Source of the DNA: Schmidtea polychroa
Lineage: Eukaryota
NCBI GenBank assembly: GCA_044892525.1
Contig: CM097886.1
Span: 99,076,001 to 99,140,000, forward strand
DNA length: 64,000 bases
Direction: 5' to 3'
Shown: positions 10,901 through 44,000 of the stretch, one piece after another
Position numbering within the stretch: the first letter of the stretch is position 1
Layout: the number at the start of each line of letters is the position of its first letter
The notes under the pieces: model-generated
Databases searched by the model: none
Seen by the model: only the letters and a program-made list of their open reading frames with translations
What the model was told of the DNA's origin: nothing
Position numbers and translations under genes: made by a program

Positions 10901-13900
10901 TCACACCCAATTGTCACAACGTGACTGTACTGTATTTTGACCTAGTTTACTTTCCGCTAACTGGATTTTCATTGGTCGTTTCATTTCTATATAAATATAA
11001 GCTGTCTAATCAATTCTTTATTTATAATCAATTTGGATTTATAAATTTATTGATATTGGATTTACGTTAGACATAAATTTCATTAATTTTCAAATTTCCT
11101 TTAGTAAGATTATTCATTAATTTGTTTAATAATTTTCTAAATGAAATAGATTATTTTCATTAATTATTCAAATGGCTAAAAGAGTAATTTTGATTCCAAT
11201 TGATACTAGCGAGCATAGCAAAAGAGCATTTCGATGGTACTTGAAAAATATGAAACAGGAGAATGATATAGTGCTATTTATTCACGTAGTTGAACCTGTT
11301 TATGCTACTCCAGCAGTTGGAATGATGGAGCCACCTCCAATTGTTTTAGATGACATGTCACGTATGATGGAAGATGCTATTAATGAGGGCAAGAAGTTGG
11401 GCCAGGAATTCATGCATGAAGCGAAAGATACTGGGTTAGAACCCAAAGCTTTTATTCATGTTGACACCAAGCCAGGAGCTGCATTAGTGAAGTCAGCAAA
11501 GGATCATCAAGCTGATGTTATTGTAATAGGTAATCGAGGAGTAGGCACGTTGCGTCGTACATTTTTAGGCAGCGTTAGTGACCATATTCTCCATCATGCA
11601 CACATTCCAGTTGTTGTCGTTCCGCCAGAAGCTAAATAAGCTAATAGAATCAGAAAACTTGCGATTTCTTTTTGATTGTTTTGTCGTAAAATTCGTATTA
11701 AAATAAAAATATTGTTTTGCAATTTACATAAATTTTTTTTTCGACAGCTTTTTATTTCATTGTCAAGGAAATTTTTTTATTTATTGTTTGCTATTGTGTA
11801 ATATTTGAGAAATAAATGAATTATTTGCTTCCTAACTAATGTTTACATCAGTTGAATAGCTCGATTCAAATTTGTTGGCATTATTTAAACACGGATTTAA
11901 ATTAAATATCAAATAAAATAATTTGGAATTTTCTTTTAATTTGTTAATCTAGTAAATGTTTTTATAGAGTTTTCAATAATTTATTTTTATTTCAAGCCTT
12001 TCAGCATATTATTTGTCGAATAATATAATCAGATTAAAAATTGAAATTAAAGCAATTAAGTATTCACAATAGACAATTTAATTACAGAATTTTCATTAAT
12101 TCGGAAATTTTAAATCATTTATCAATAATTGAAACTTAATTTCTACAACTTTAATGTCTATTTGTCAACTAGATTTTAGATGATGGAAATTGGAATTAAC
12201 TATTTTGTTCCGTTTAACCATGTAGGTCAGCGGTGCTTAAATCTTTGGTAGGGAACGCTAAAGGGGTCGAAAAAAATTGGTTTTATCATTTTGAAATATC
12301 TATTAAAAGATATTTTTTAAATTTTGTGTAACTACATTTGTTAAAAATTTTTTGATTTTTTTCAATAAATTTTGCTAGGTGGGGTCGAATAATTTTTTTT
12401 ATTTAAATAGACTCGCAGTTGGAAAAAAAATGCGTATCATTGATGTAGGTAATAAAACTCAGTGTGAGATACAGGATTCTTGGAACTGAAACTGACACCA
12501 GCTAAATTCAAGGAATTAGTACGCTAGGATGTAGCAAAGTATAGATTTGGTATTTTGAGCATAAACTGATTTCAAGGTGCTTAGTAAGTCAAAAACACAA
12601 TTCACTGGACAATATATTTATTTGAATCAATAGAACTACAATTGCATCTTCTGAATTCCCATCACTATTCTATGCTCAAAGGGGTTACCATTACAGACTA
12701 AAATCGAAATTGTTCTATTTGTTCATCACGTATATGACTTGCGAATTATTTAATTCAGTTTTTTGACTTACTCCATTTATTACATTTTTATGCTTCTCTC
12801 GTTTCGCAGCTTCCGAATCGTAGCAATCTCTTTGATGATATTTTACTCAAACTTGAATTATTAGCGCAAATAAATAATAAGTGTCCGACAATTATAAGTT
12901 ATAATATTATTTTTTTAATTGAATGCTGCACTATAAAAATTAAAATTTGGTTACATTTAAATAATAATAACTAATTTAAAATTCAAAAATTTAATTTTTT
13001 TATAAGTTAAAAATATATTTTTATTTGTTTGGAACCTTGGACGTGCGTCCCGGTCATCTATGTTTCTGTCACTTTTTGAAAGCATCTTACCAACAAGTTG
13101 AACTTTAGGGTCTTCACAGATTACCATTAACCCGCCACTTCCTTTCAGCTTGTTGAAGTTGTGGCATTCAGTCTTCATTCTTTACTCTTCTTTCCATAAC
13201 TGACAAAATAAATTTGCATAAATTAATAGTGGATGTAGTATAAAGATAATTAGTAAATTTTATATAATCAATAACGTAACTACAAATTTAAGTCCTTAAG
13301 CTAAATTTATTTTGAAACCTATTGACATCTGAATATTCTGAACGAATGAAATATGTTACGAAAGAATTTGAGCAAGTTTAAATAATTTTAAAAAAATTTA
13401 ATTGTATAAAATACTAAATACAATTAAAACTGTTTTTTTTTAACCAAGAAAATATTACATTTTATAATTATAAAAATATATTTTATAGTTCTCTCTTACT
13501 TTTTCATTCGAAGATTTTGAAATTTTTATCTGAGAAGCTCAAAGCATTGATTTCTTTTGCTAATCCACTGAGTGGGTCCTGTATATGGTTGTAAGAATGA
13601 ACCTAAAGGTATGGGTGGAAATGCATAACTGTGCATAAATCATTGTAATTTCTGAGATTAAGTAACTTAGATCTCTTCAAAATTTCAGAAAATGATTAAT
13701 ATAAAATTTTCAAGTATAAAACTACATGACTCCAGCGAGTATATCAAGTATTGAAATATACAGTTAGAATGGATTCCCCTTTATCAGACACGTTTACCAT
13801 TTTTGACAAAAGCAATTAAATTAACCGTTTCATATGTCTAGTTAAATGTAAAAAAATATTTTTCAGCACGCGTAAAATGTGAAGTATTTTACAGTTGAAA

Positions 13901-16900
13901 ATCTTTTACAATTAATTTTAAAAAGAAATTTATAGGGGCCAACTGGAGATCGAGGTATAAAAGGAGGGGTCGGTATAAGAGGAATGAAAGGCGTTGAAGG
14001 AATAAGAGGTCCACAGGGACCTCAAGGATTAAAAGGTGAACCTGGAAGTTCTGGAAAAGAAGGTCCAATGGGAGAAGATGGTCCGAAAGGAGCTATTGGA
14101 CCAAGAGGACAGCGAGGAGACCCAGGTTTGGCCGGAGAAAGAGGTCCAAACGGACCTCCTGGACCAATAGGCCCAGTTGGACCTTTAGGTTTTTTTTAAA
14201 AAAATCAGATATTTTGTTTAACTAAACGTTCAGGACCAGGTGGACTAAAAGGTGAAAAGGGCGTTAAAGGACCTGATGGAGCTCCTGGCTTACCTGGACC
14301 GGTAAAAATTGTTGATATGCAAGAAGGAAGCTCTAAATATGTAAATACTGGCACCAGATTTAAGCGTGAAGCCAAAACCGAGGATAACAAAGAAAAAATT
14401 GGTAATATTTATTATTCAGTCTGATATTTACTAAATAAAATTTTCCAAGCAAGAAAAAAATATTCATAAATTCTCTGAGCAAATAGTTTGTAAAATTTCC
14501 CAATTTTCAATTATCCAATTTATTAAGTTCTAATCTTACTGATTCTGTTGATATCAAGGCATTACTATGCTTGCATCATGAAGGTAGCTTATAATGATGT
14601 TATATCTAGGACATGAAGAAATTTTCCAAATGCCTTACTTTTTTCTCTTCAATTCTTCCATTTTTTGTTGCTTGATATCTACAAAAAGTATAAAAATAAA
14701 TTCTTATTTTCGTATACCAATGACAATATTCACAAAGGCCTGGATCCGTGTAACAATTACAACTGAAGTGCTAATAGAGCTCCATTGAAATTTGATTTGC
14801 TGACCAAATGGACTTTAACATTTTCAGACTTCATCGGGTCAACCATTTGAAATCAGTGTTACGTAATCTCTTAGAGAGAAAATATTCATAAAACGTCTAG
14901 GGTTCAAGTTTGGCATAGTTCTGCACCACAGACTTATTGATTATTTTTATATCTTTCTGTGAAATTTCAATGCAGTTTTCATTGGTTGGTTGAGTTATTG
15001 TTATGATGTGCAAGACGTATCAAAAAGATCTTGCTACTATAAACACAATGCACAAGTAAGTAACATTTGTCAAGTGTGAAACATTTCAAAGTTTAATTAT
15101 ATTCAAATCACTTATTAGTGAACTAATCAAAGGAACATTTTGAGATCTTAATTGATTATGTCAGCATTTAAACAAAATACGTAAGAAATAAATATCAGAT
15201 GGTATAATGTTCAGAACTTGAGGTCGAGGAGTGAGGACGGAGGGAGGAGGAGTGTTGACAAAAGAACCATTGAAAAAGGTGTTTTTTATCTGTCATTTTA
15301 AGGGTGAATTTAAAAATATCTGTTTAATTTAATGTCTGATGCGTTTCTAAAAGAGCTCTTCTTCTTTGTCTTTGCATACTCAATCAGAACTAGTGAGTGT
15401 TTGACTGGAAAAGAATATTTTTTTACTATAACATTTTTCAATTTTCACCACTGATTTCTTTTCAATTGACATTGTATTTATATTTAGAAAGAAAAATAAG
15501 CTAACTCAAAAATTGACACCTTCACAAAATGATATTTAAATTCCTACCAAATTAAATATGGTAAAACAAAAAATTAAAGAAAGCAGGCTGATTAAATGTT
15601 ATTACACACGCGTTAGTAATTATGTTAAACCTGCAGACAATTTTTTACATATTATATTCATATTAGATAAATGCACAAATATTGTTCCCAGGCCCGGTTC
15701 CAGTCATTTGGCGGCCCTAGACAGCTATATGTTGGCTACTCTATCCATATATGATATATCAATGTCACCATGTCAGTGACTTGGAGGAAAACTTATTTTC
15801 GTTTTTCAGCAACAGAATCTTTTTTAGTTCCTTTTAACGCTGACATCGATAAATCAAATTTTAATTTTAATTATTCATTAAAAATAAAGAAATTTGAAAA
15901 TGATCTAGATTAAAATGAACACAATGTTGATATATACTTTCGTAAAACGAATGATTAAAAATTATATATCGAATAAAGTGAAAAATAATTAAAAATATTT
16001 ATTAAACGACGTTGTTACATAATTTATTTTAATTTCAAAAAATATTTTTAATGTTTATTTAAATCATTTTGCAAATTTGGCGGCCCTAGGCAGGTGCCTA
16101 GTTTGCCTAACGGAAGAACCGGGCCTGTGTTCCTCATGTAATGTTAAATTGTAGGTAAAGCAAACCCACTATGCTTAATAAAATTCAATGGCGTAGTTTG
16201 TATTTTGCGTTGATTTGTCTATTGTAAAATTACTTCAGACAGGTGATTAATTTAAATAGCCTCAATTATCCTAATTTGTTGAGAGAAAGCATTAATATTA
16301 CATTACGGTCAAAAATGACGGCACCATCCTTCCAGGTATATATATTTCCCCATTCTTTTAATGTTAATCAACATATGCCCCCCATGTGACATCTTTGAAA
16401 TTCCTGAATCATTTTATAATACACTTATTTTTACAAATTTATAAATTTTAATTCCTTTGAACACTTTTGAACATTTGATCTTTTTAAACAAAAAATATTG
16501 CTTTTCTTTTTATGAGAATTAACACAAAATCCCATCCGAACAAATTTGATTAAATTTTTAAACAAAAGGTGAAAGGTCATTCGCGAAATGAAGGTTGACC
16601 CCAATTGCTTCATTTTGCAAATAAAAAAAGAAATTATAGAAAAAATTCTTTACATGGGAGAAATTTCGACGGGCATCATTTGTGTTCCGCTTGTTTTACT
16701 AGTCTCATTTCATACATTTTTAATAATTATACTACTTTCAATTTGTTTTGTTTTAATAAATATTAAAATGTTGTTTCAGAAAATCCAGAAATCCCAAAAG
16801 ACACCAACGGAATTATCAACATCCTAAAGAGATTATATTCAAACATTGATAAATTGGAGAAAAATATGGTTTCTATACAGAGACCCATCGGTAGTAAATC

Positions 16901-22788: not shown

Positions 22789-23742
22789 TTATATCAAGAT
22801 TTCAACATTGGGGGAGTCTGTAGGAACAGTTTCATATATGTTAATATCATGTAATTCCTTTGGAAGTTTAATAGAATTATTTTGAGGAGTCTTCCAGTCG
22901 ATTTCATCAGCAAACCAGGGATGAGTTTTAAGAGTTTGCTCCTTCCCCATGATACAACCTAGGCGTTTCGTGGGATCAACTGCCAGAAGTCTCTTAACTA
23001 AATCCCGAAGCTCATCAGAGAAATGAGGAGGAAATTGAAATTTGCCGGAAATTATTTTTTTCACTAGGTTCAGTTGAAATTCCATTTTGAATGGTGAATA
23101 GCCGGCACCTAATTCATATAGTAGAACGCCGAAAGCCCACCAATCCACAGCTAAACCATGACCTTGATTAAGGAGAATTTCTGGTGCCATGTATTCCAAT
23201 GTTCCTTGGCACGTGTAGGATCGACCTGTAATTCTTTTGGAAAAACTAAAATCTGTCAACTTTATCATCCAACTGGAACTTATCATTGTATTTTCCGGTT
23301 TCAAATCTCTATAAGCTATTTCTTTCGAATGAAGATATTCCAAACCTAGGAGTATCTGAAAACTGAAAAATCTGACTGATGATTCTCCTAAATAAATATT
23401 TTTCTTGAGCACATTAAAAACTGTCGTCGGGAGGTATTCGAGTAGAATATTGAATGTGCAATTCGACTCAAATGAACCGTAGTACTTGATCAGAAATTCG
23501 TTTGATATCGAGGAAAGAATTTCGACTTCATAGCTTACCTTTGATGCTAGATTCAATTCATCGAATTGGGTCTTTGATATTTCTTTAATGGCCACAAAGT
23601 CTGGAGCATCATCTGGTTTGTTATTCATCCATTCAGCCATGAATACCTTTGAGAATGCTCCTTCACCTATTTCTTTAATTATATAGAAATCTGTGAGACT
23701 CAAATCGTTTGATAATTCTTGTTGATCATCTTCAGACGTCAT
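22789..23742 (-). CDS. Intronless, divergent AGC-group (PKA catalytic subunit-like) Ser/Thr kinase
   Basis: GEGAFSKV, VAIK, alphaC Glu (YEVEIL), YRDLKPEN, DFS in place of DFG, YTCQGTLEYMAPE, GHGLAVDWWAFGVLLYE and HPWF. First ATG at 23742. Confidence 0.9.
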   Translation of the reverse strand: MTSEDDQQELSNDLSLTDFYIIKEIGEGAFSKVFMAEWMNNKPDDAPDFVAIKEISKTQFDELNLASKVSYEVEILSSISNEFLIKYYGSFESNCTFNILLEYLPTTVFNVLKKNIYLGESSVRFFSFQILLGLEYLHSKEIAYRDLKPENTMISSSWMIKLTDFSFSKRITGRSYTCQGTLEYMAPEILLNQGHGLAVDWWAFGVLLYELGAGYSPFKMEFQLNLVKKIISGKFQFPPHFSDELRDLVKRLLAVDPTKRLGCIMGKEQTLKTHPWFADEIDWKTPQNNSIKLPKELHDINIYETVPTDSPNVEILI

Positions 23743-24312
23743 CAAAACCCTTCAAATAATAATTCCAATACAAAATTAATTGATTGAACAAAGTTCAAAA
23801 TGATAAAGATTAGACCCATAAATCCAGCACAATTGATTAAGCATAGAAATCAATAAATCACTGATTATAATCAATAATTATGAGGAATTGATTATTTAAA
23901 TTATATTTTAACCAAATTTATTCCTACAATTGCCTCACTGATACTGTATCCCTTGAAGCTGATAAAGTCCATTGTAGTTTAGGTCTAACCTCTTAAACAT
24001 AGAATGACATAGTTGGCTACGGTGGATTAGGTCTATCCCGAGTGGTCTACGATAACATTGGTCAATGTCACATTTACCAGATTTGTGAGATTTTAGAAGG
24101 ATATCATTATGTGAACATTATTTCTGATGAAAAGATTTATTAATATATTTGACCATTCTTTTTGAAGCCACTACTTAATTTATCAATAACATTTCATGTA
24201 ATTGACAGTTTATTTTGACAATTTATCTTGATGGCAATATGTTTGTGTGTATATATGATCGTAACATTTTGATGATAATTGTGATTATTATACCATTTAT
24301 TATAGGTATATT

Positions 24313-24390: not shown

Positions 24391-24773
24391 AGTGCATTTT
24401 ATATCGCAATAAATGTGAGGAAAACATAGATTGAATCGGGTTTATTAAAATAAAGAATAAATTGAATAAAGGTTACATTATTTATTATTAAAATAATTTA
24501 TTTAAATTTCTTTTTATCAATTATATTAGAATTATTTTTTTTAAAAAGTTATAATAGTTACATTAAATTTTAAAATATTTATTATTAATATTCACTTGAA
24601 AAATGCAGTGCCGAAAATTCGTGAGTATCAACAAACATCGATATATTACTGATTTAGAGTCATCAAGCTCTCTTTTCAATAAATTCAACTGAAAAAATAA
24701 TCAGTGGTGAAATTGGAAGAAATAAAAGTTTTTATAATAATATTAATAATAAATTAATAATTTTTTTTAATTT

Positions 24774-25766
24774 TGTTGAGGTTTGAAAATAAATTATTAA
24801 ATTATATAGTTCAGATTAAAAGGAAAGCCGAAATTGAATGGCGGTCAAGCGGAGAAGCAATGGCAAAGAAAGATATGATAAAAACAGAACTATAAAAGGG
24901 TACAATCAGACATGAAATGGGAAAATGCGCAAACCGGAGGAAGTGGAATAAAGTGAAAAGTTATCGAAATTGAAGCTGGAAAACGGGAGAGGGGTAGATT
25001 AAGGGATGGTGAAGAAGACAGTGAGTAAGAAATTGTTAGAAAATGTGTGGAAAGGGTAGTAAAACAGACAAATGTGGAAAAACGTAAAATATTAATTAAT
25101 TAATTAATTGGCTAATGGGAAACCCGAGCTAATGGGAAGCCCGAGCCAATGGAGAACCCGAGCGATGAAGAAAACCCGAGCACGGCAATTTGGAAGGGTA
25201 AACAAACGAGGAATTCAGAGGGCAATTATCCAAACAACCGGATAAACGAGGGTAACAAAAGACGGGGAATTACGAAGAGGGTCAACAAAAATAGTCAATT
25301 AGGGAATGATAGCGGAAGAAGTCAAAACCAATTAGGTCACAAACGGGCCAATTACAACGATTATGGGAGTATATAAGGAAACTCAAAATTCACATAATCG
25401 GCGATAGCCTTAGGTAGGGATACGAAGAAACAGACGATAGGAGTTCGAGGAATAAAATAAAAGGAAAAAGGAATTATAAGAGGAATTTAGGAGTCAGAAA
25501 GGAATATTAAAAGAGTTCGGATCAGAGAGCGGAATCAAACAAAAGGTGAAACCTATTTTTTTTTAAATCGTACAAGGCCGAGACCTTCCAGAGCGGAGTT
25601 CGAGCTGAAATTGTGTAAGAATTGTGATTAACCAACAGTGTGATTAATTGTTGAGAGTTGTGAATTGTTATAAAACAAATATACGTTGGGAGTTTGTGTT
25701 TATTGATTTTGGAACACGTGGAGTCAGAGTAACCAACGGTTGATTTTGGTATCATAAAACCCAACA
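24774..25766 (+). repeat. 5' LTR (993 bp)
   Basis: TG...CA termini. Four ~17-bp tandem AATGG(G)AAACCCGAGC-like repeats near 25116-25182, a TATA-like GTATATAAG near 25369 and AATAAA near 25452. Duplicated at 33036. Confidence 0.95.
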
Positions 25767-25773
25767 TATATTT

Positions 25774-25791
25774 TGGTGAGCCCGACGTGAT
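25774..25791 (+). promoter_or_regulatory. Primer-binding site complementary to the tRNA-Trp 3' end
   Basis: TGGTGAGCCCGACGTGAT differs at one base from the complement of the conserved eukaryotic tRNA-Trp 3' end (ATCACGTCGGGGTCACCA). It lies 7 nt after the LTR. Confidence 0.85.
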
Positions 25792-25952
25792 TAAACGTTG
25801 GTGGGCGAATATTGAAGGGTGAAAGAGGTGAAGAAAATTAAAGTAATAAGAAAATTGAAAATAATTGGAAATTGGAAGAGGTAGTAATTATTGATTATTA
25901 ATTTTAATATTTAGCCGTGAGTGAATACAATTTGAAGAACCGAAAAGTAAAG

Positions 25953-28043
25953 ATGGCCAGAGAGAACGCTGAGATGATAGATTTTGCCAGTTGTCAAAAA
26001 TTACCGGTGAATCAGTATGGAGGAGACCCGGTTGATTTTGCCGATTTCATGGGCGATTATTATATGTACGCTTCGGCCTATGGGTGGTCACAAGCCATAA
26101 TGGTAGAAAGATTCCCACTCTATTTAAAAGGAGCCGCAAGAGAAGCTTGGCAGCAAGTGGATAAAAAGACAATTGGAAATGATTGGGCCAAACTCAAGGA
26201 TGCGATGGCAATGAAATTGGTGGGAGGCGACATAAAAAGAATAATGCGCCAAAAATTTTATGCCAGAGTACAAAATCCAAATGAATCGGTAAGTGAATTT
26301 GCATACAATTTAACGACTTTAGCAGACAAGGCCTTCGAAGCAAAACCTGAACAAGTGGAGATGGTGAAACAAGTCAAAGAATTGCTAGAAGATCAATTTA
26401 TAACTGGAGCCCATCCTCAAATAAAAAAAGCACTATGCTACGTGGATTTTTCGAATTTCGATGAACTCGTGAAGAAAGCAATGAAAATTGAATTGAATTT
26501 AAAAAGTACCAGAAAATCTGAAGTATTTGCCGCAAATATTGAGAAAGAAGAAAGGTCGATAACTCCAGTAAAGAATCAATGGGAATCAAACGAACCAATC
26601 CAACCAAACAGGTCTCCAAGATTAGGTAATAAATTGGAAGTTAATAAAGCAACTTTTAGCAATCAAATAAACGAGATATCGAATAATATTGTATGCGAGT
26701 TTTGCAAGAAGCCTGGACATTATTCAAATCAATGTTGGTTCAGAAATGGTAGAAATAGGAGTCCTAAAGGAAAAAGTACTGAAAATAAGCCAAACAATGG
26801 TGACATTGAATGTTATCGATGTGGAAAAATGGGCCACATTAGCAGAAATTGTTTTTCAAGAACTATATCACCTTCTAGATATCCCAAGAAATCAAGTAAA
26901 TTTCAAGGTGAATCAATCAATGCCAATGTAGCTTATGCTCAAAAAGACGACTTTAAAGAAAAGATGGAAAATGAAGTTCGAGAAATGAGAAAAAAATTAG
27001 ACAAGTTGATGTCGAAAATTGAATTTGATGATGAAGCAGACTCTTATATGGCGTACGAAAATATTTCGGAAAACTTTGCTAATAAAGTAAAAAATGACTT
27101 GTTGAACGAAAAGGCTACGTTGTTATTAAATAAAATGGAAAGATGGCTCGAAAATATGGAAACAAACAATCCAAGATTGAAAGAGTGGGTTACAGAGTTA
27201 AGTCAGATCCAACTTAGTCATAAGAAATTGAAAAGTGCATTGAACTTATGTTCTAAGCTTTACAGCATACTCCAAGATGAGGAAATTGCTAAATTAATGA
27301 GAACATTTGGAAAAGCATTAAGATCCAAAAACGATTTGGATAATATTATCGTGGAGACCACAGACATCAATGGTATTAAAGCTCAATTTTCTATCAATCC
27401 TTATGGACAAATCAAAGATTTGACAATGCTTATTCTGGCTAAATACAATAAAGGCAGCGTGAAATTGACACAACGGCAAATGGGACAACTGAGGGATGAG
27501 GAATACTTGGTAGATTGTGGTTTAATCCCTGGATTAAAAAATGAGGTAAATATTTTGGATACTTTTAATCATTCAAATTCAGATTTTAAAAATTGGAACG
27601 AAACTTTAGGGAATTTGCGAGAAATGTTATATATCGGAGATGAGGACGAGATCAATAAATGTCTTGAATTAGTGATGAGTTCAAAAATGAATGGAAAAGA
27701 TAAAGAGAAGTTGTTCGAATGTATTTTGCCGCATATTCATAAAGAAACGAAATATCAAACCAGATTAAAGGAAACTCTACGGAAATTAAAATATGATTAC
27801 AGAGAACCGGAGTGTAATAAGAAATCATTAATGATAGCTCAAAATATTGATGGAAAAGTTGAATACTTTCAAGAGCACTGGAGTGTAAAGGTGTCAAAAT
27901 TACGACAAAAAGCTGCAGAAACAATGGGAAATAATGGAATTATTAACGAAAATCTAGTTAATTACGGATTTAATCCAAATGACATAAATAATGTTTATGC
28001 AACGAAGTCAAAGGATGCATGTCTGAAAACGAGGTTATTGTAA
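25953..28043 (+). CDS. Gag-like polyprotein: capsid region, two CCHC zinc knuckles, long C-terminal extension with a probable ubiquitin-like domain
   Basis: FADFMGDYYMYASAYGWS...FPLYLKGAAREAW is typical of gypsy gag. Knuckles CEFCKKPGHYSNQC (26694-26735) and CYRCGKMGHISRNC (26811-26852). UBL-like segment at 27342-27554. Confidence 0.88.
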   Translation: MARENAEMIDFASCQKLPVNQYGGDPVDFADFMGDYYMYASAYGWSQAIMVERFPLYLKGAAREAWQQVDKKTIGNDWAKLKDAMAMKLVGGDIKRIMRQKFYARVQNPNESVSEFAYNLTTLADKAFEAKPEQVEMVKQVKELLEDQFITGAHPQIKKALCYVDFSNFDELVKKAMKIELNLKSTRKSEVFAANIEKEERSITPVKNQWESNEPIQPNRSPRLGNKLEVNKATFSNQINEISNNIVCEFCKKPGHYSNQCWFRNGRNRSPKGKSTENKPNNGDIECYRCGKMGHISRNCFSRTISPSRYPKKSSKFQGESINANVAYAQKDDFKEKMENEVREMRKKLDKLMSKIEFDDEADSYMAYENISENFANKVKNDLLNEKATLLLNKMERWLENMETNNPRLKEWVTELSQIQLSHKKLKSALNLCSKLYSILQDEEIAKLMRTFGKALRSKNDLDNIIVETTDINGIKAQFSINPYGQIKDLTMLILAKYNKGSVKLTQRQMGQLRDEEYLVDCGLIPGLKNEVNILDTFNHSNSDFKNWNETLGNLREMLYIGDEDEINKCLELVMSSKMNGKDKEKLFECILPHIHKETKYQTRLKETLRKLKYDYREPECNKKSLMIAQNIDGKVEYFQEHWSVKVSKLRQKAAETMGNNGIINENLVNYGFNPNDINNVYATKSKDACLKTRLL

Positions 28044-28882
28044 CTCACTGGCCTAGAATCGTAAAAGAGGAAGATGATGAGATTGGAGCAATTAAAACTG
28101 AATTATCTGAGGAGCTAAATGAAGCTGAGTTGAAAGGTTTTGAGTCAAAAAACAAAATTTTACATGAAGTGCGAAATGGAAATGTAACTGATGTCAATGA
28201 AACTGATGCAGCAAGTCAAGAAATTTATAATATGAATGACAAGCCGATAAAAACGGAAGAATTAAAATGCGAATTGAAGTTTGTTGAAATTGGTAATACT
28301 GATAAATCAAATAACCGTAAGCGGAAAAAGTGTGAGTTAACAGAAAAAGACGATTTAAGCGATGTAAAAACAGATTTAAATGATTTTATTGAAACAAAAG
28401 TGATTTTAAAAAGGTTGGTAATGGAAATATATGCACTAAATGAAGAGAATGTATATGAAAATGAATTTATGCAACAACTTGCGAAACAGCTGAAAAGGAG
28501 ATTTCCAATCATACTTCAACATAGCGTTAAAAGAAATGTATTTTGTGATGAAACAGTAATCAAGAAGGTAATTAATAAGGGTTTGAACAGAGATGTAGTA
28601 TTGACGGTTCTAGCTTGTATTGTCTTGGAAATTGGCACACATGGTTGTTTGGAATCGGAAAAATTGGAAAAGTGGATCGAAAAAGCCACAAAAGTGGCAA
28701 ATACATATGTGACAAACTGGATAAAATATAATGGTGGATGGAAAAATTTGGTACTAAAACCGAGGAATTCAAAAAGGGTGTATGAGTTAAAAAAAGGCAA
28801 AAATGATATATACATGGTTGACGATGTTTGTTTTTGTAATTTTAGGAATCATCAACAATACAACGTTATTGGTAGTATATGA
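28019..28882 (+). CDS. LTR-element ORF2: acidic N-terminus plus a Bcl-2-like domain
   Basis: BH2-like YVTNWIKYNGGWKNL, degenerate BH1-like VINKGLNRDVVLTVLAC and BH3-like FMQQLAKQLKRRF, in Bcl-2 order and spacing. Confidence 0.62.
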   Translation: MSENEVIVTHWPRIVKEEDDEIGAIKTELSEELNEAELKGFESKNKILHEVRNGNVTDVNETDAASQEIYNMNDKPIKTEELKCELKFVEIGNTDKSNNRKRKKCELTEKDDLSDVKTDLNDFIETKVILKRLVMEIYALNEENVYENEFMQQLAKQLKRRFPIILQHSVKRNVFCDETVIKKVINKGLNRDVVLTVLACIVLEIGTHGCLESEKLEKWIEKATKVANTYVTNWIKYNGGWKNLVLKPRNSKRVYELKKGKNDIYMVDDVCFCNFRNHQQYNVIGSI

Positions 28883-29852
28883 TTATTCTCAAATTAAAAA
28901 GAAAATTCCTAGAAATGTAAAAATTTATAAAAAATATAAAATTGTGAGTACTGATCTGAAAGACAACGAGAGGAAAAATTTCAAAGATTGGGAAAATGAA
29001 ACAAAAAAGGACACGAAACTTCAACAAATATTTACCAAAAATAAAACTTTAAACAGCTATAGTAATAAAGTGTTAATTACAACAAAACAAATAGAGAATA
29101 ATAACTTACGAGAGCCATTCACACCGAATTATGACAAAAATACTTACGTGGCACGAGAGCTAAAGGCAAATTTTAAGCCCCCTTGGAAGAATGAGCAAAA
29201 TGAGACATACACTCCTGGAAAATTCAACAATCAAATTATAGTTAAAGTAAAAACAAATGAATTATATAACAATGAGAAAGTAATAGAAAATAAATGGTCA
29301 TTGTTTAAAGTTGACAGCCAGGTAAACCATTGGAAAAACGAGTCAAATCGAGTAGTTTTTACAGTTCAAAATAAATTAGCGATAGCATATCAAAATTCGG
29401 AAATCGACAAAAGAAGCATTATCAGTAGTGGACAAAAAATTATCGTTTTGTTGGATGCCGGTAAAAGCTATTTTTCATTTATTACTCCTAATTTAGAATA
29501 TAATTACCTGATAAAAATTAAATACCAACAACGGATATTCGAGCCATATCGATGGCAAACAGTTTTAGAGAAAACAAGAATAGTGCCAAAGCCGAAACCC
29601 GACATAACCACCACACGTCCAATTTCTACAAGTCAATATCAATGTAACAATCGTGTAATAAATAAACGGACTCAAATTGAGATTCGTCCAACTTTAATCA
29701 TCTGTGAATGTTTGATATACCTCATACTGACAGCATTCCTCATACTATCGCTTAGGTTAAGAGTAATAACAATCATTTTGTGTGGAAATAGACAGCATAC
29801 TATAGATGACTTACGACTTGAATCTTTCAATGTGATCAAAACCACTGTATAA
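28803..29852 (+). CDS. LTR-element ORF3: predicted membrane protein of unknown function
   Basis: 349-codon ORF with hydrophobic segments at both ends (YTWLTMFVFVILGII; LIICECLIYLILTAFLILSL) and a beta-strand-like central region. Confidence 0.6.
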   Translation: MIYTWLTMFVFVILGIINNTTLLVVYDYSQIKKKIPRNVKIYKKYKIVSTDLKDNERKNFKDWENETKKDTKLQQIFTKNKTLNSYSNKVLITTKQIENNNLREPFTPNYDKNTYVARELKANFKPPWKNEQNETYTPGKFNNQIIVKVKTNELYNNEKVIENKWSLFKVDSQVNHWKNESNRVVFTVQNKLAIAYQNSEIDKRSIISSGQKIIVLLDAGKSYFSFITPNLEYNYLIKIKYQQRIFEPYRWQTVLEKTRIVPKPKPDITTTRPISTSQYQCNNRVINKRTQIEIRPTLIICECLIYLILTAFLILSLRLRVITIILCGNRQHTIDDLRLESFNVIKTTV

Positions 29853-30012
29853 AAACTATTATAAAATTACATGCGTGTAAACAAATTTTATAAAATTAGC
29901 ATGGTTATATGAATGTAGATGTGTTACTTTGTTTGGTCGGACTTCGCTATGGTATGCTTGGCCTTGCGCGATAAAGAGTGTTTAAAAAAACTTTAATTAT
30001 ATTTAACTTCAG

Positions 30013-30258
30013 GAAGCCCAAGAGGAAGAGTCAATCAAAGAGTGTCGAAACTCAATGAAAGAAATGAGAAGAAAAATGAAAGCAATGGAGAGGAAAATTG
30101 ACGACTTGGAACTAGAGGATATGATTTGCAAAAGAAAGCTGGAAAGGATGGAAATTCTCCTGTTCCAATACGAAGCGGAAGTCGTGTTGCTAAGAATGCA
30201 GATACAGGGAAATGAATGCCCGACCGATGAGGAAGGAGAGATGGATGAGTTAGAATAA
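30013..30258 (+). CDS. LTR-element ORF4: acidic coiled-coil peptide, probably a spliced exon
   Basis: Acceptor-like TTTAACTTCAG ends at 30012. It is followed in frame by EAQEEESIKECRNSMKEMRRKMKAMERKIDDLELED, which has a heptad pattern. Confidence 0.5.
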   Translation, partial: EAQEEESIKECRNSMKEMRRKMKAMERKIDDLELEDMICKRKLERMEILLFQYEAEVVLLRMQIQGNECPTDEEGEMDELE

Positions 30259-31329
30259 TTTAATGATTAATAAAATTTACAATTTAAACCTCACTTTTCG
30301 TCCTCGAAGTAGTAAAAGAGAAGGGCTAAACGATAATAACATTTACATTAATAAAACGAAATTTTAAAAGGGAATAAATGAATAGAACAAAATAGTCAAT
30401 AAACAAAATTTATTGATAAGTTAGTCCTCTAGCAGGACAAAACTCTCGATGTGGGAGTCGTCCACTACACCCCGAGGAGGTCTTTTTTCGAACCTTTTGA
30501 ACCTGTGGGACAAGTCCACACAGGCAAAAGTACGTTTTAGACCCGAGCGAGGTGGCGCGGGTACAGGAAACCTAAGTAAATCCTACAGTAATTTTAATCA
30601 AATAGAAACGAAACTAACCACATGAGGGGATCATATTTTACTAATGAGTCCTAAATTAAAGAATAAAATTAAATCAAGCAAAAAAAAAAAAAAATTAATT
30701 CCGACATAAAACAAAAGTAAAGTGACAAACAGCATAAGTGAAAAGGCTAAAGCTGTGAGGAAAATTTATATTTATAAATAACTGGCAAATAAAAACCAAC
30801 ATAAAATCTGTCGCTGTACTCATCATCGACCGTCGATATCCGGAGAAATGTTACCATAGCAAACACGCTCTATAATTAATAATGCATAATTGATAGCTTT
30901 CAATCATTAAGATACACTCAACATTTAGATAGGAAGCTAGTTATATTGGAAAATCGAATTCCTATTACAAGGAAGATGAAAGAGAAATATTTAATAATGA
31001 AATGGAAAAATATTTTTTTAATATTTTTTTTGAATAATTATTAGAATGTAATTTTTCACATAAATAATTTTAAAAGTTTAATAATATTTTTTAATATTTT
31101 TTTTGAATAATTATTAGAATGTAATTTTCACATAAATAATTTTAAAAGTTTAATAATTTTCTATTAACTGTCTTAAAATTGCTCATTTGAAATCCAAACG
31201 ATATTGGGCATGAATACATATTGCGGTAACGACACAAGCTACTCCAAGAAAAAGCATAATAATAAAATAATAAAATGTAAAATAATAATTTGTAGTTACA
31301 TTTAACAAAAAAAAAATTTTTTTTTCCAT

Positions 31330-31830
31330 TACAGCAAGTCACAAACTTGATACAGAACTTCTGTTTCCATTCTTCAGCTGTTTTCTGCTGTAATCGACCA
31401 TAACTATCTTCAAGTCAACGAGCTCTTGAAACTTGTAGTTCAAGTTCTTTTTCATTGGAAATGGATATCAAATTTTTGGGTATGATTTCGTAAAACCCTT
31501 CGAGAAAACTATGAAGTTGTTGGTGAATAGCTCCAATCATTTTCTCTTGACGAACTGATTTAACATATTCAGATTTATTTTCCTCTGTGAGAAGTACTAG
31601 AGAGTTTCTGTCGGTCCAAATTCTGATATTTGAATAGAAAACGTTTGATAGAGAGGCATTGCCAAAACATCCTTTTCTATAGGAATTCCAAATCAGGGAA
31701 AAACTGATAGTATTCTTTTTCTAGATCAGTATATCAAATAGAGATGCCGAGTATATGTTTGTAGAATGCACGAATCATCATCCGGAATTATAGTGCGCTT
31801 GTAACGATCTGTAGAGAAATATTGTCGATT
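31330..31830 (-). pseudogene. HUWE1: Decayed HECT E3 ligase fragment (HUWE1-like) carried antisense inside the LTR element
   Basis: Minus-strand translation gives RAFYKHILGISI*YTDLE, then after frameshifts [21 protein letters not shown], then [57 protein letters not shown] (31597-31427). These are collinear with the HUWE1 HECT N-lobe. Confidence 0.85.
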
Positions 31831-33022
31831 GCCTAACATGTTCAATAAAATTTTGTGCGTTGATTAGAATTAGCGAGAAGAAATGTTCCGTCTTTGGAAT
31901 TTGTTGTTATAATAATCTGTGATGATATATTGAATTTAATATCAAAATGATGATAAAACATTTTTAAAATTATTCGATCTTTTAATCTAAAATGTATTAA
32001 CCCTTTCCTCTCCTCATTATTTTCTGCGCCCTGCATATTTCAATACCAATTTACATACACAGGATAGAAAAGGATTAACGATATATTTTCAATTATGAAT
32101 TTAAACAAATTAATTAAAAAATTTCAAGAAACATATGATCCTCTACTGTGACATTAATTACTCTAAATTCATCAAATTTTTATGACTTCTATATCTTTTA
32201 AAAAAAAAAGAAAAAAAATCAACGAAAATTCAAATACGAACACACCTAACTGAAAATAAATAAATAAAATTCAAATAGCAAATCATCCTTGCCCTTTAAC
32301 GTAGTTGATGAAAATAACAAATAATGTCGATGGAGTTTTGTTGTGATGGAATAAATAAAATTCAATTAGCAAATTGCCAGACAAATCCGAATGAGATTTT
32401 GGGTATTAGTACAGTTTATATATGATATTTCTCTGCCAGCAGTAATTGCACAGCACTTCAGCACCAGCCGATCAGAATTGATAAGTCGTGCAGACACGCC
32501 TATATCGTAGATTGTTTGGTATATTTGTGTATTTGGGTTAATGTGAGTTTGGAATCACTATTTGTGCAACCACTACACAAATCAATGTTTATCATATTGG
32601 TTCCGGTGGACGGTTGGAGTGGGTCGTTTGAAAATTAGCTCCTATCTCGGAACAAACAAACTGTGATAAATTTTAACCTCCTTTAACTCGATTCGAATGT
32701 TGATCGATGGAATATTTTAAATTGAACTGCAATGATAAAACTGATATATGGTTAATCTAAATCATTAAACATTATGCATGTTAAATTAAAGACGAATTTT
32801 AATAAAATTAATAATAGTCTAATAAAGTCTAATAAAATTAATAATAGTCTCAAAATTTTAAATATCTATCAATTAAAAAAAAATAATCTCAAAATTTTAA
32901 TATTCTAAATATTTTATGACTCTCCAATCAAATGAAATTAAAATAATAATAATAATAATATATGTGAATTTTAACTGAAATTACATTCTCGAATAAGCAT
33001 ATTTCGAGGACGAAATTTTTTT

Positions 33023-33033
33023 AAGGGGGGAGA
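33023..33033 (+). promoter_or_regulatory. Polypurine tract
   Basis: AAGGGGGGAGA, 2 nt before the 3' LTR. Confidence 0.85.
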
Positions 33034-33035
33034 TA

Positions 33036-34028
33036 TGTTGAGGTTTGAAAATAAATTATTAAATTATATAGTTCAGATTAAAAGGAAAGCCGAAATTGAA
33101 TGGCGGTCAAGCGGAGAAGCAATGGCAAAGAAAGATATGATAAAAACAGAACTATAAAAGGGTACAATCAGACATGAAATGGGAAAATGCGCAAACCGGA
33201 GGAAGTGGAATAAAGTGAAAAGTTATCGAAATTGAAGCTGGAAAACGGGAGAGGGGTAGATTAAGGGATGGTGAAGAAGACAGTGAGTAAGAAATTGTTA
33301 GAAAATGTGTGGAAAGGGTAGTAAAACAGACAAATGTGGAAAAACGTAAAATATTAATTAATTAATTAATTGGCTAATGGGAAACCCGAGCTAATGGGAA
33401 GCCCGAGCCAATGGAGAACCCGAGCGATGAAGAAAACCCGAGCACGGCAATTTGGAAGGGTAAACAAACGAGGAATTCAGAGGGCAATTATCCAAACAAC
33501 CGGATAAACGAGGGTAACAAAAGACGGGGAATTACGAAGAGGGTCAACAAAAATAGTCAATTAGGGAATGATAGCGGAAGAAGTCAAAACCAATTAGGTC
33601 ACAAACGGGCCAATTACAACGATTATGGGAGTATATAAGGAAACTCAAAATTCACATAATCGGCGATAGCCTTAGGTAGGGATACGAAGAAACAGACGAT
33701 AGGAGTTCGAGGAATAAAATAAAAGGAAAAAGGAATTATAAGAGGAATTTAGGAGTCAGAAAGGAATATTAAAAGAGTTCGGATCAGAGAGCGGAATCAA
33801 ACAAAAGGTGAAACCTATTTTTTTTTAAATCGTACAAGGCCGAGACCTTCCAGAGCGGAGTTCGAGCTGAAATTGTGTAAGAATTGTGATTAACCAACAG
33901 TGTGATTAATTGTTGAGAGTTGTGAATTGTTATAAAACAAATATACGTTGGGAGTTTGTGTTTATTGATTTTGGAACACGTGGAGTCAGAGTAACCAACG
34001 GTTGATTTTGGTATCATAAAACCCAACA
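33036..34028 (+). repeat. 3' LTR (993 bp)
   Basis: Same length as the 5' LTR with no differences noticed; the internal ORFs 25149-25376 and 33411-33638 translate identically. Followed by the ATTT TSD. Confidence 0.95.
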
Positions 34029-34153
34029 ATTTTGTTAAATAATTTATAACAAAAACACAAAAGTCCTCAAATAAAGCGCTAACACATTTTAGTGTCAATA
34101 AAAATATTTTTTAAGAGCTTAAGAAAAAATGTCAATTAAAATTGACATATTAA

Positions 34154-36014: not shown

Positions 36015-38734
36015 CAGGGCCGTACCTGGGTATATGGCCGCCTGCGTGCTAGTATGCATGGCCGCCCTTTGAGATAACATCAAAATCAAAGAAAAAAATC
36101 AAATTTTCATTCTTAATGTTTATTATTATACTTATATATCTAATGTACATGTACATATTACCATTGAATATAAAACATTAATATGTTTTGGCACATATAT
36201 AAATCTATGATATTACAATCAAAAATTTACTCTACGTGATTTTTTAGAGGCAAATTCTTCAATTGCCCCTTCAATATTTAAGGAATCAGCAATTTCACTT
36301 TCAATTGCAATAATTGATATATTACTGAGACGTTCTTGAGTCATTGAAGTTCTCAGGTGGTTTTTGATTATTTTTAATTTTGAAAAACTTCACTCTCCAG
36401 ATGCAACAGATACTGGAACTGTCAGTAAAAGTTTTAAACTTCTGGCGACATTTGGAAAAGAAGTCTCCAAGTTGTATTTGTATAAAAACTTTATGAGTTC
36501 TTCGGGCTGCTTTCTGTTTTTTATGATAATTTTTAGAGAAATTAACTCTTGATATAATTCTACGCCACTGATATCGCAAGATTCATCATCTTTAAATTTA
36601 TTATGAAGATCAAAACAACTTTTTTTTTATTTCCTCATGTTCCATATCGATAAATTTGTATAGAAATCCAAAACATTGTTCGAAATTTGACAAAGTTTCA
36701 AAACGGGTGGTAAGAGATGAAATAGCTGAATCTAGTATTACATAGAAAAAATTAATTTGAAAATGTTCTTCTGGAGTAAATTGAATATCTTCATCTCCTT
36801 CATAGCTAAATTGTTTTCGGTGATGTCGGCGACGTACACTAATTTCAGCAGGAAAATCCGGTTCTGTTTCAAGTGCTTTACAAAGTTCATTAGAAATCTG
36901 CAAATAATTTTCGAAACTTTAGTTATTTCTAATGCTTTTGAAAAATTTCTAAAATTCCTTAATTGATTCAGCACACGAACTGATATTCCAAGAAACTTTC
37001 TGCATCATTTTGCTAATAAAATCTACCTTTTCAAAGATTTCGTACCATATTATTATTGAAGAAATAAATTTATAAGATTTAAGTTTCATTGCAAAACATT
37101 CAGCTTCATGTTGAACTGTTGGCATTGAAGATTCCTCAGCTATTTCTATAAGGCTGTCATAAATTTCACTTAATTCATTTCGCAGTGGTCTAATCGCTTT
37201 AATTCTTGCTTCCCATCGAGTTTCACTAACTTGTTTCAATGTTAAAGATTTTACATTTTTCTTTAAAACTTGCCATCTAAATGGTGATTCACTGAAAAAG
37301 TTGTATATTGCAGATACATTACTGAAAAAATCCACCGTTGAAAACGAAACTTTAGCTGCATCATTAATGGCCAAATTTAATGTATGCGCGTTGTATGGCA
37401 TAAACAGAACTCGTGGATAATTGTCCAAAATTCGTTTTTCCAATCATTTATGTTTTCGGGACATATTAGACCCATCATCGTATCCCTGGCCCCTCATATC
37501 GTTAATATTTAAATCAAGATAGTTTAACTTTTGAATTAAGAAGTCGTAAAAAGATTCCCCAGTACATTTTTCAGCTTGATAAAAGCCAATGAAATTTTCT
37601 CTTACTTCAACTTCATAATTTTTAATATGTGCATACCTAATAATCATTGTAATTTGCTCGACATGTCCAGTGTCCGACGTACAGTCCAAAATGACTGAAA
37701 AATATTTTATTGATGTTAATATATATTTTTGAATTTGGGTTGCAAGGATAGTGATTATTTCATTTTGAAAGCGATTTCCCAGGTAATGTGGCATGTGGTT
37801 CTTTAAAGCGATTGGTTCTTGTACGCGTTTTATGTGGTCTGCCATTATATCATCAAATTTTCCTATCATTTCAATTGCTTTCAGAAAATTTCCATTATTT
37901 TTTTCGTACAATTTGCTGGAAGAACCTTTAAAAGCTAAACACTGTCCTGCTAGAAATTGTACCACAGATATCATGCACCTGACAATTTGACACCATCGTT
38001 TTTTCTCGGCGTCATAATACCGTTGCATATTCTTATCAATTGTAGTTTTTCTTTTTAAATTTAATTCCAATTTTTTCCAACGGGTGCAATTTTCGATGTG
38101 CAGCGATGTTTTTTCGTGACGAGATAAGTTGTCAGATATGTGTTGCCAATCGTTGAAGCCTTCATTAACTAATTTTATTTCTTGTTTGCCAAATAATTTA
38201 CAACAGAAGCAAAATGTGGCATCATTTTTTGGAGAATAGATTAACCACTCACGATTAAATTTTTCACCATTTGGCAGTTTTCTATAGAAATAAACCTTTG
38301 AAAATGATCTTCCAAATTCATTTAGTGGATATGTAGATTGTATATTTTGAATAGGGCCTTTTTCAATTAAAATATCCAGCATTTTATTGGTAAGTGTTAA
38401 AGGCCAGCAAGCTGGATCATTTAGTTCTATACACAGCAAAATATTCTAAATCAATTTCAGTGATATCGTCGATATTTGTAACTGCAATATCTCCTATTTC
38501 ATCATTACTATTAATATTATCATTATCATTTGTATTTTCGTCAGATAATTCATTTTCATTGGAAAAAAATTCACTGCTTAGATTTGCTTGGCTACTGCAA
38601 GCATTTTGCATTTCTGGAGGTTTTTCCAAATATTTGGTTAGTGAACCAAAGATTTTTTTAGCAACATGTTGTTTTTCTTCTCGCTTTCTTTTATATTGTG
38701 CTCCAGACAATCTTTTCGTTTTTCTCCCAGTCAT
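36015..38734 (-). mobile_element. Inactivated hAT transposon (ZMYM1-like / DUF4371 transposase with hATC dimerisation domain)
   Basis: Starts MTGRKTKRLSGAQYKRK at 38734. Motifs WLIYSPKNDATFCFCCKLF, FSVILDCTSDTGHVEQ, RGQGYDDGSNM, SETRWEAR and FPNVARSLKLLLTVPVSVASGE*SFSKLKIIKN, ending at 36219. Frameshifts near 38430 and 36960, stops at 37444 and in hATC, and CxxH changed to YxxH. TIR-like CAGGGCCGTAC at 36015. Confidence 0.9.
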
Positions 38735-41035: not shown

Positions 41036-44000
41036 ATGAAAATATTTCTGTTGATAATCTTAACTATTTGTAAGTATGTTAAGATATATAGATATATATT
41101 GATATGACTTTAGATGCTACACATTCGAAGAGGTTAAGAAAATCCGTTTCTAATAATAAAAATCAAAATCTATTTCGTTTAATTGATAATTCTAAAGGGA
41201 TAACATTGCCGAAATTTGTAATTTTGCCGAACTTTAAAAACCACAATGAATCTTTTGAAATCCAGTACAAATCTTTCAGGAAAAGCACGACGATTATATC
41301 CTCGTCTTCCAAGTGGATTTTATCCGTTTATATTGACCAGCATTTCTTCTATAACAATCAATCGAATGAGCCTCTACATGCCCTTTGTTTCTTGGAATTT
41401 TCCATTGAAAATATCAGCAATGAAGTCGGCCAAAATGCCAGCTGTAAAGTCATCGTTCGGGTGGATAATTTCACTGCCAGTGCAAATTGTTCTTTGAAAA
41501 TAGGAAGACCACCAAGCACCTGCAGTGTACATTTTGAGTTGGGAGAAACAATGCTTTCGAATTCCCCAAAGAGCTGGGCGTCAGTTTCAGGAGAATTAAC
41601 GTTGCCTTCATCGCCATCCATTACAAGCTCCATCAATCGGCCGGCATTTCTAATCAATAGCTTGAAACCGGTCAATTGGACAGTTATCCAATCGGATGAG
41701 AAATTCGGGAAATTTGGTCTCGGTCTACCGATCTCATCTGTCAGAACTGGATCGAGATTCAAAATACCGTTTTCAATTACGAAAATTGATCGACTGAATT
41801 CCGCAAAAATCCTGGTGGAATATAATGATTGTTTCTCGTTCAATGGCCTGGAGAATGTCAACAGTTCCCGTTGGGAAATTGAGAATGCTTTCTATCAGAT
41901 GGACAAAAGACAAACTGGATTTATTCGAGTGACTTCGTTGGATAAGACTTATCGAGTTGGCGAGGAGTTGTACAAAGAGAGGTGAGACATAATTTGCCCG
42001 AATCATAAGGAAAACTGAGACAATCCCACTTCATTCCCCCCAGGCCTCATCGGGTTAGATTACTCAACGATTCGACACACACTCTCACACACATACACGC
42101 CCGTATTTCAATGGCAGCTGGAGTAAAATTTAATTTGCATTTGTTCGACACATGCACACCAACACACACACAAGAATACACACAGCAACATTACGCTAAC
42201 ACAAACAGTAACATGAGGTGAACGTGATTTAATTCAACAAAACAATTGCTTTTTCCTTAAATAAACATTTTCAATCTCATTTGTATACATAACAATAACA
42301 AATCTCGATGTAATTGTAATTCTCGATTCCTATTGGCTGATAATTCGATTGGTCCGTTAACGCATCAATGTGACGTGATGCAATTTCCAGTAGAGAGACA
42401 GATTTCTTTTTCTCCCGGAGGCCCCACTTAACATGTCGATCTTAATTCTTTTTCTTTCATTTTTCATTTGTTCAATGAGATTTTTCAAATATCTATTTTA
42501 TGATTGATTTAATGATTTTATTACAATAATTATTATTAATTATTATTAATTATTTATAATGATATTTTATATTGGATAAATGCATTTAATCCTGACCTTG
42601 CCATAATTTGGTTAGGGTGCTTAATTGGCTGTCATTGTCAGTAACTCATTGATATATATGGAACATTAATTTGATTCGTTAACAATTCCACAAACGGATA
42701 AATCATAGTGCGTTGAATATTGTTGCCGGAGAGCATTTCGTAACCTGGTTCCTGGTTATCCAAACTAGCGCACCAACAGCATAGCAATAATAACAACAAC
42801 AACAATAAATATTGACAGTGCTTGTCTGACCAGAGAGAGAGAGAAAGAACAATCTATTGAATGTTGATCGGAACAGTTTGTTACAGTAAATGAGTCAACC
42901 AATCATAGAAGGATATGATTGTTTATTTTACTGTGTTATAGCGGGGACAATATCACCAGCAGTCATGGCCATTGATTGGTGGCCGTCCATAACTCTCTGA
43001 TTCATATCAATAAATAGGAAATGAGTTCTCCAATGAAATTGTCATTTCCATGCGTCTAATCCTATTAATTAATAATGAGACAAATAAATGTTTACCTAGT
43101 TGATTTTGTTTACTTTTAAACATTCACCGGTATAAAAGATGCAAAGAAATCATGGAAAAATTCAGTGAAAATGCGAATTGTCTATTTCAAATATATTTTG
43201 TAAGATATTGTTTGGTAACTGAGTTTCTATTAATTGAAGGCCAGCGAGAAAGCACTTGAGAAGAAGTGCAAAATCAATAAATCAAATAGCACAACAATAT
43301 TATTCAGATATATCAATAATGATTTGGTTGGAAATTCGATTCTGGCCAAATAAGCAATGTAACAATAGGATGGTGCAGTGGGGAATTATTCCCTGCAATT
43401 AGTGCCCATTCAGTTGAAGCTTGAATTGGGGAATTTAGTGTCAATGTGGATCAACTATCTAAATGATGTCGGCTTCCAGCACTGTCAACGGGACAGCGGT
43501 TCAAAGTCAATATTGAAGTCAGCTGCAAATCAACATTTGATACAGGAGGTCGAAAGAAAAAAAACTTACATATCATTACTTCTCGACATCAATCGAATAT
43601 TTAGGACGGCGTTTTGTTTAGCCATGTGAAATTGCATCGTGATTAGTGTTGTTTCAATTGCCCTTATACACTGTTTACATTAATCTGTCTGGTTTCATCG
43701 GGCTGACTCTCGGCATTTTACTGATAGGGAACTACTAGTGACACTTTAGGCACCTTTATTTAGTTTTTACAATGATTACGGTCTCCCCTCTCTTCTCTCT
43801 CTCTCTCTTAACAATCTTCAATACTCCATATTTACCTTGTTGGTCATGCAGCTAGACCAATCAAATTGATCCATTAAATCATCTTAGTATACATTTCAAC
43901 AACAGATATAGAATAACACCGGATTTTAGAGTGATCATGATGATGAAGTCCAGGAGCATATAAATGCTTTGATGGTTTGAATTATCGGATTAGTTGATGT

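Follow-up and report, generated by a model that had tools for sequence, protein, structure and literature searches.

A predicted Bcl-2-fold domain in a young planarian LTR retroelement family that lacks env and pol

Introduction

Bcl-2 mimicry is a strategy of large DNA viruses, and a Bcl-2-like domain encoded within an LTR retroelement raises the question of how it came to be there and what it does for the element. We addressed this question for a single planarian locus, located in a 64-kb stretch of DNA that was analysed as a whole and is referred to here as the window. An earlier note, made from the sequence of the window alone, had recognised a BH2-like motif and judged that a Bcl-2 homologue in an LTR retroelement would be unusual. 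As a claim of novelty this did not survive comparison with the literature: Arkhipova and Yushenova (2019, PMC6431247) describe a BCL2-like motif in Burro-2, -3 and -4, with Env lying between BCL2 and the protease (PR), so that the motif stands directly before Env. Burro (GYPSM1) elements are giant Gypsy-like LTR retroelements of Schmidtea mediterranea and Dugesia tigrina (PMC6431247, citing Grohme 2018 and Jurka 2007). The questions pursued below are therefore whether the domain has a Bcl-2 fold, which kind of element carries it, where it came from and whether it is still under selection.

Results

The element carrying the domain

The locus had been taken for an LTR retroelement, and an identical LTR pair, a target duplication, a tRNA-Trp primer site and gag bear this out. 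The element is 9,255 bp in size and lies on the forward strand between a 5' LTR (24774–25766, TGTTG...CAACA) and a 3' LTR (33036–34028), both 993 bp long and 100% identical to each other, which are flanked by a 4-bp target-site duplication, ATTT (24770–24773 and 34029–34032). The primer-binding site (25774–25792, +) consists of 19 nt complementary to the 3' end of a host tRNA-Trp(CCA), as called by ARAGORN in L122 with CCA added, and a polypurine tract (33023–33035, +) directly precedes the 3' LTR. Tandem tRNA-Trp(CCA) genes with a period of 284 bp were observed in the genome (L122–L125, G000:C4:55.02 Mb onward), with 821 genomic matches to their pattern.

Three open reading frames follow one another on the plus strand. 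ORF1 (25908–28043) encodes Gag, with a capsid domain (Retrotrans_gag, E 8.7e-9) and two CCHC knuckles (zf-CCHC, E 4.1e-9), together with a middle region; it is 94% identical to aa 1–714 of a 1,333-aa ORF in the sibling copy L037 and stops at a frame break private to the window copy. ORF2 (27992–28882, 296 aa from stop to stop) comprises an acidic linker and the Bcl-2-like domain, is 95% identical to aa 716–976 of the same L037 ORF, and in sibling copies is part of one long frame with Gag. ORF3 (28791–29852) is a remnant in which the initial residues of Env are joined to a short segment that lies between protease and RT in full-length elements and to the C-terminal tail of the polyprotein, as established by piecewise mapping to the full-length elements L031 and L042. 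A Pfam scan of the ORFs found no Env or Pol family in the window element, and a domain scan of ORF3 and two sibling ORFs gave the same result: the element has lost Env, PR, RT, RNase H and IN. Just 3' of the long ORF lies an acidic, coiled-coil-like frame of 83 aa (30007–30258, +) with no significant family.

The window itself is AT-rich and of animal origin; besides collagen repeats and a kinase-like ORF, it contains several pieces of transposons. Its resemblance to published planarian elements makes a Schmidtea-type planarian the likely source. It holds a multi-exon collagen gene (5894–14299, +), a 320-aa protein-kinase-like frame named from its motifs (22789–23751, −), and exons that likely belong to a gene for a TMEM132-like membrane protein (41092–41985 and 49469–50998, +; TMEM132_C, E 0.001, below cut-off). 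Other transposon remains are found at 36610–38445 (−), 57082–57921 (+), 59136–61366 (−) and 61994–62608 (+); the kinds present are hAT-type (DUF4371; dimerisation domain), a DUF5641 frame, which we take to be BEL/Pao-type, and a second Gypsy-type gag-protease.

A diverged domain with a predicted Bcl-2 fold

The motif said to match the BH2 consensus, WIKYNGGWKNL, was confirmed at 28718–28750 (+) within ORF2. A BH2-like pattern written to describe it is found a single time across the six frames of the 64-kb window and in none of 60 base shuffles, a weak control because the pattern was composed after the motif had been seen. The degenerate BH1 proposed at the right distance upstream also holds: the BH1-like segment KGLNRDVVLTVL (28577–28612, + strand of ORF2) reads NRDV at the NWGR position (28586–28597), and 51 residues separate the BH1 Asn from the BH2 Trp, compared with 52 in two NWGR-bearing host Bcl-2 proteins of the same genome. 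NWGR is replaced in all four retroelement groups of this genome, by NRDV, NKDV, DRDV or NRDK, and the groove Gly and Arg of BH1 are thus lost in the retroelement domains. The BH3 consensus in helix 2 of Bcl-2 proteins is LxxxGD. Of the BH3-like helix that had been suggested, the helix is present in the model (residues 32–42), but a motif search of the domain did not find LxxxGD.

Profile comparisons place the domain at the edge of detection. Its match to PF00452 spans the full Pfam model (1–100 of 100) with an E value of 0.002 and 19 bits, under the gathering cut-off of 31.4; the relative P0003 attains 31.4 bits, and 14 of 16 members of the retroelement alignment match PF00452 at E 1 or better (best E 1.8e-7). 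A PDB search with the single sequence returned three matches, two of which are schistosome Bcl-2 (E 0.72 and 0.87). Another group of retroelements (L075–L082, L088), whose frames are about 3,050 aa long, carries a Bcl-2-like domain with NRDK and scores 29–32 bits on PF00452, nearer to the Pfam model than the window domain.

The alignment used for both profile and structure prediction contained 16 natural retroelement copies and zero host proteins. The resulting retroelement-only profile matches Bcl-2/Bcl-xL chains (E 3e-4), and the AlphaFold model built from it has eight helices with a pLDDT of 78.6 and a pTM of 0.78, the five models spanning pLDDT 51–79. A model made from the single sequence was poor (pLDDT 46.8) and was excluded from fold searches, and the ESM Atlas had no entry for the domain sequence. 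In Foldseek against the PDB, all 40 rows among the matches listed belong to the Bcl-2 family, none reaching E 0.001, and the top named viral matches are vBcl-2 proteins. In a VIA-align search over 48,161 chains, the top 36 of the best 50 rows have a Bcl-2 fold; the best row has Z 12.7 (rmsd 3.0, 131 aligned) and the first unrelated row Z 5.2, to be read with the tool's caution that a Z under about 13 can be ordinary among helical bundles. The closest structures are the BH3-binding pro-survival proteins Bfl-1, CNP058, A179L and Bcl-xL, where rows within 1 Z unit are ties; vaccinia A52 and B14 are also among the structural matches, at Z 8.5 and 7.0. The AlphaFold and Foldseek check that had been proposed for this locus thus returned a predicted Bcl-2 bundle, and given this fold and its structural matches the NGGW motif does not stand isolated. 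Profile, fold and motif evidence together delimit a diverged helical-bundle domain at 28370–28762 (+), with eight predicted helices, that is predicted to adopt the Bcl-2 fold.

A hydrophobic stretch and two frame breaks

Downstream of the domain lies a hydrophobic stretch (28797–28853, +) which forms the start of Env in full-length relatives and, in the window copy, does not share the domain's frame. Its hydropathy is 1.96 in L037 and 1.88 in L041, and the Env profile starts over the corresponding stretch in P0002. It was found in frame with the domain in 25 of the 28 sibling loci readable by pattern (29 loci were tried, one of which was unreadable). The stretch is likely to be both the Env signal sequence and a putative membrane anchor of the Bcl-2-like domain.

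The reading frame of the window copy is broken twice, at about codons 710 and 970 of the sibling frame. The domain itself is uninterrupted but is cut off from Gag on one side and from the hydrophobic stretch on the other. Each break occurs in one of 23 copies, and both lie in or at A-runs in an element with identical LTRs, leaving either real mutation or assembly error as their cause. The window copy is likely broken and inactive.

A young deletion family and its full-length relatives

The genome (781 Mb, 1,012 contigs) was searched for relatives, and 150 matches out of 1,238 candidates were scored. Seventy-seven of them are 76–100% identical, have frames of at most 1,333 aa and constitute the deletion family; the others fall into groups of 33 (53–63% identical) and 40 (44–47% identical), both with frames up to about 3,340 aa. 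These long frames read Gag, Bcl-2-like domain, Env fusion glycoprotein, PR, RT, RNase H and IN in one frame (relatives L031, L034/L035, L041/L042 and L043/L044), and in family B a sub-threshold ubiquitin-like match lies upstream of the domain. In the sibling L037, a single 1,333-aa frame spans ORFs 1–3 of the window, with Gag and its CCHC knuckles followed by the Bcl-2-like domain; it then jumps from the first Env residues to the short piece intervening between PR and RT and from there to the polyprotein tail. Two large deletions (Env–PR and RT–IN) have left one open frame. The family-specific junction falls within 28820–29080 of the window, and all 40 matches scored, out of 122 candidates, contain the junction stretch at 98–100% identity.

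Among 20 fetched copies, 13 hold both LTRs and measure 8,959–9,804 bp. The LTR pairs of 12 of these 13 are 98.8–100% alike, which indicates that the deleted form itself has been spreading recently. The family has kept its LTRs, primer site, polypurine tract and Gag-to-anchor coding; LTRs, primer-binding site, polypurine tract and target-site duplication in the absence of pol, in many dispersed copies, are the marks of a non-autonomous LTR retroelement, and the family shows them. The window element is a member of this young env-less and pol-less deletion family, derived from planarian GAG-ENV-POL elements. In four sets of contigs of uncertain kind, family DNA covers all 30 bins in three, which shows the presence of DNA only.

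The LTRs of the window family are 97–98% identical to those of the full-length elements L041/L042 (family A1). Outside the LTRs, identity to L041/L042 is 92% in the 5' part, 88.5% in the 3' part and 68% in the middle, which includes the domain. The L041 letter is carried by 20 of the 36 shared capsid variants of the deleted family, and pieces of the window's 3' cargo recur 8–11 kb downstream of three family-A domain matches. From these shared LTRs, capsid variants and 3' pieces we infer that family A1 may mobilise the deleted family in trans and may have recombined with it. Three consecutive LTR copies were observed upstream of a full-length family-A1 element (L041:1448–4910).

The 3' cargo of the window element (30845–32990) is a patchwork that differs among copies, the window version being present in 3 of 20 fetched siblings. 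It includes, in altered order, two pieces of a host gene for a HECT E3 ligase (31339–31773, −), antisense to the element; they are 94% (99 bp) and 85% (361 bp) identical to L126, in which a 680-aa frame matches HECT with E 4.8e-55. These scrambled antisense pieces suggest that the family captures host sequence in its 3' region. Over the wider interval 30410–33035 and the same region of L089–L108 and L042, several distinct patchwork versions occur among 20 copies and are partly common to full-length relatives.

Selection and origin of the domain

Between lineages the domain was under purifying selection. Its dN/dS is 0.23–0.30 over 128 codons in four of five lineage pairs, the fifth being saturated; the flanking linker is about as constrained (0.24–0.41) and the capsid has 0.03–0.09, all of these values being rough owing to nearly saturated synonymous sites. 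Among copies of the deleted family, 7 of 26 domain variants are synonymous (expected share 0.23, p 0.40), and shared domain variants comprise one synonymous and five non-synonymous changes, in a test of low power that used the best-scoring copies and small counts. Since the deletion, the domain looks neutral and passenger-like, and linker, anchor and tail also appear neutral-like within this family.

A phylogeny against host Bcl-2 genes, as the earlier note had advised, separated the retroelement domains from the host rows and named no donor. In the 22-row tree, a 97/96 branch separates 11 polyprotein domains and two unlabelled rows from six host and two Maverick rows; P0001 and P0007, unrelated repeat proteins among the 11 proteins from the profile search, were left out. 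With its long branches, the tree of 22 rows resolves no host donor gene, and a word-indexed search for longer homologues yielded none among 190 candidates. One ancient capture of the domain from a host gene would be the simplest reading, given the grouping in the tree and the BH1 changes in all four groups.

Other Bcl-2 sequences were encountered in the same genome. Dozens of short, dispersed Bcl-2 genes, one type apparently with two exons (L060–L074 and L127–L132, e.g. G000:C1:50166606-50169914), adjoin TBP-like, A32-type ATPase and integrase frames in multi-copy elements and are consistent with Mavericks/Polintons; the idea that they are accessory genes of Burro was dropped, their neighbours being Maverick-like. 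At least seven near-identical host-type Bcl-2 exons with intact NWGR lie at G000:C4:89.9–90.8 Mb (L045–L051), and a host exon with a BH3-like motif (L133:9023–9199), about 90 bp before a BH1–BH2 exon, likely belongs to a Bak/Bax-type gene.

Discussion

Relation to known elements

The full-length relatives share the order of Burro, namely Gag with CCHC knuckles, ubiquitin-like, BCL2-like, in-frame Env, PR, RT, RNase H and IN (PMC6431247). They differ in size, with about 3,330–3,350 aa and roughly 15–16.5 kb as opposed to about 4,900 aa and over 30 kb in Burro (PMC6431247), and the MATH, BIR and ankyrin domains described for Burro1–4 were found neither in the 10 ORF pieces scanned nor in the window ORFs. 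The window element measures 9,255 bp and has lost Env and Pol. In gene order and size the full-length relatives also resemble Smed_errantivirus_1 and _2, GAG-ENV-POL elements of Schmidtea mediterranea of 14.8 kb with an HSV/gB-type Env (eLife 2026, PMC13524379). The first 34 listed Env residues of Smed_errantivirus_2 differ from family B at one position when compared by eye (PMC13524379); the window family differs from these elements in being 44–47% identical to family B in the domain and in having no Env and Pol. The terms "Bcl" and "non-autonomous" do not occur in the main text of PMC13524379.

Viral Bcl-2 homologues (canarypox CNP058, ASFV A179L, KsBcl-2, ORFV125, M11L, F1L) offer a parallel in their compact Bcl-2 fold, degenerate BH motifs and mobile genome, but they are separate DNA-virus genes with measured BH3 binding, whereas the retroelement domain is part of a polyprotein known from sequence and a model. 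Another parallel is B-IAP of Burro1, reported to be a functional, protective IAP (Lee et al. 2026, as cited in PMC13465017): it too is a host-derived anti-apoptotic cargo of a planarian retroelement, the role of our domain being putative, although it is a RING-BIR caspase inhibitor with reported function and not a Bcl-2 fold.

In the literature searched, retroelement Bcl-2 was found reported only for planarian Burro elements, as a motif annotation. To this the present analysis adds a fold prediction, evidence for a single ancient capture, the loss of NWGR common to the groups and long-term constraint. Bcl-2 cargo of planarian elements is hence already known; we could not find the deletion family, its patchwork 3' cargo or a test of the domain described in the literature searched, whose coverage did not extend to Grohme 2018 and Lee 2026.

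Probable function and alternatives

We consider it probable that the predicted Bcl-2-fold domain was captured once from the host by Burro/errantivirus-type GAG-ENV-POL elements, where it likely serves as a membrane-tethered death blocker, and that it is likely a passenger here, in a young env-less and pol-less deletion family of which the window copy is frame-broken on both sides of the domain. In the parent elements, the hydrophobic stretch would route Env into the ER and would remain on the C-terminus of the domain as a tail anchor; the protease would release the domain from Gag, and the freed domain could then hold pro-death BH3 proteins, so that the particle-making cell would stay alive. 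Full-length family A1 would supply RT and IN to the deleted family in trans. An anti-apoptotic function of the domain is thus putative, and the blocking of apoptosis would be the likelier function in the parent elements. The Gly and Arg of NWGR are important for BH3 binding in cellular proteins (PMC9027176), and for BH3 binding by some viral Bcl-2 proteins, BH motifs or the Arg–Asp salt bridge can be dispensable, according to PMC3847314. There, vaccinia A52 and B14 are described as having a Bcl-2 fold with a closed groove, acting on NF-kB and possessing no membrane segment. With viral precedents of both kinds, the function may be apoptosis blocking or action on another pathway.

The second of these, in which the fold was kept and BH3 binding lost, so that the domain targets a different pathway, in the manner of A52 and B14 with NF-kB, or is a membrane-tethered spacer between Gag and Env, appears unlikely. 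NWGR is lost in all retroelement groups, the BH3 consensus is absent, A52 and B14 with their closed groove (PMC3847314) are among the structural matches (Z 8.5 and 7.0), and ubiquitin-like domains lie upstream in relatives, below cut-off. Yet the best structural matches are BH3-binding pro-survival proteins, albeit as ties within 1 Z unit, and the domain retains both BH2 and a hydrophobic stretch at its C-terminus, a membrane segment being absent from A52 and B14 (PMC3847314).

Also improbable is that the deleted family retains Gag–Bcl-2–anchor as a selected, working protein which protects host cells, or cells producing the helper, against death, like B-IAP of Burro1, whose protection is reported second-hand in PMC13465017. 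Both the Env–PR and the RT–IN deletion preserve one open frame; all three widely shared indels in the deleted family are in frame, something a pure passenger would not require, with the single shared frameshift lying downstream of the domain; 19 of 28 sibling loci are open for at least 616 codons upstream, and the anchor is in frame in 25 of 28; and codons 331–700 show an excess of synonymous variants (34 of 91, p 0.001). Open frames are, however, expected in copies this young (LTR pairs 98.8–100% alike in 12 of 13), which were moreover chosen by score, and the one synonymous to five non-synonymous shared domain variants, with neutral-like linker, anchor and tail, argue against selection. Recombination with the helper, whose letter is found at 20 of the 36 shared capsid variants, can explain the upstream synonymous excess, which we therefore did not count as selection acting in the deleted family.

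Quite doubtful is the more far-reaching proposal that a hitch-hiking family without env and pol keeps a one-frame, Gag-fused and membrane-anchored Bcl-2 mimic that protects planarian cells while its 3' end samples pieces of host genes, which would make it a second anti-apoptotic transposon mutualism beside the Burro1 IAP. That the NGGW match arose by chance in an unrelated helical bundle, as the PDB sequence search (E 0.72), the single-sequence model (pLDDT 47) and the sub-cut-off Pfam score might suggest, is very improbable and already largely refuted, because profile, family and fold searches all indicate Bcl-2, the PF00452 score of a related group of retroelements is as high as 32 bits, and the BH1–BH2 spacing agrees with host proteins.

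On the reading that we favour, a captured Bcl-2-like domain that has become a passenger after deletion, the deleted family offers a natural comparison for what stays once env and pol go, the domain so far looking passenger-like there. Should the domain prove to bind the BH3 proteins of planarians, what a transposon carries could influence the survival of cells in an animal that serves regeneration research.
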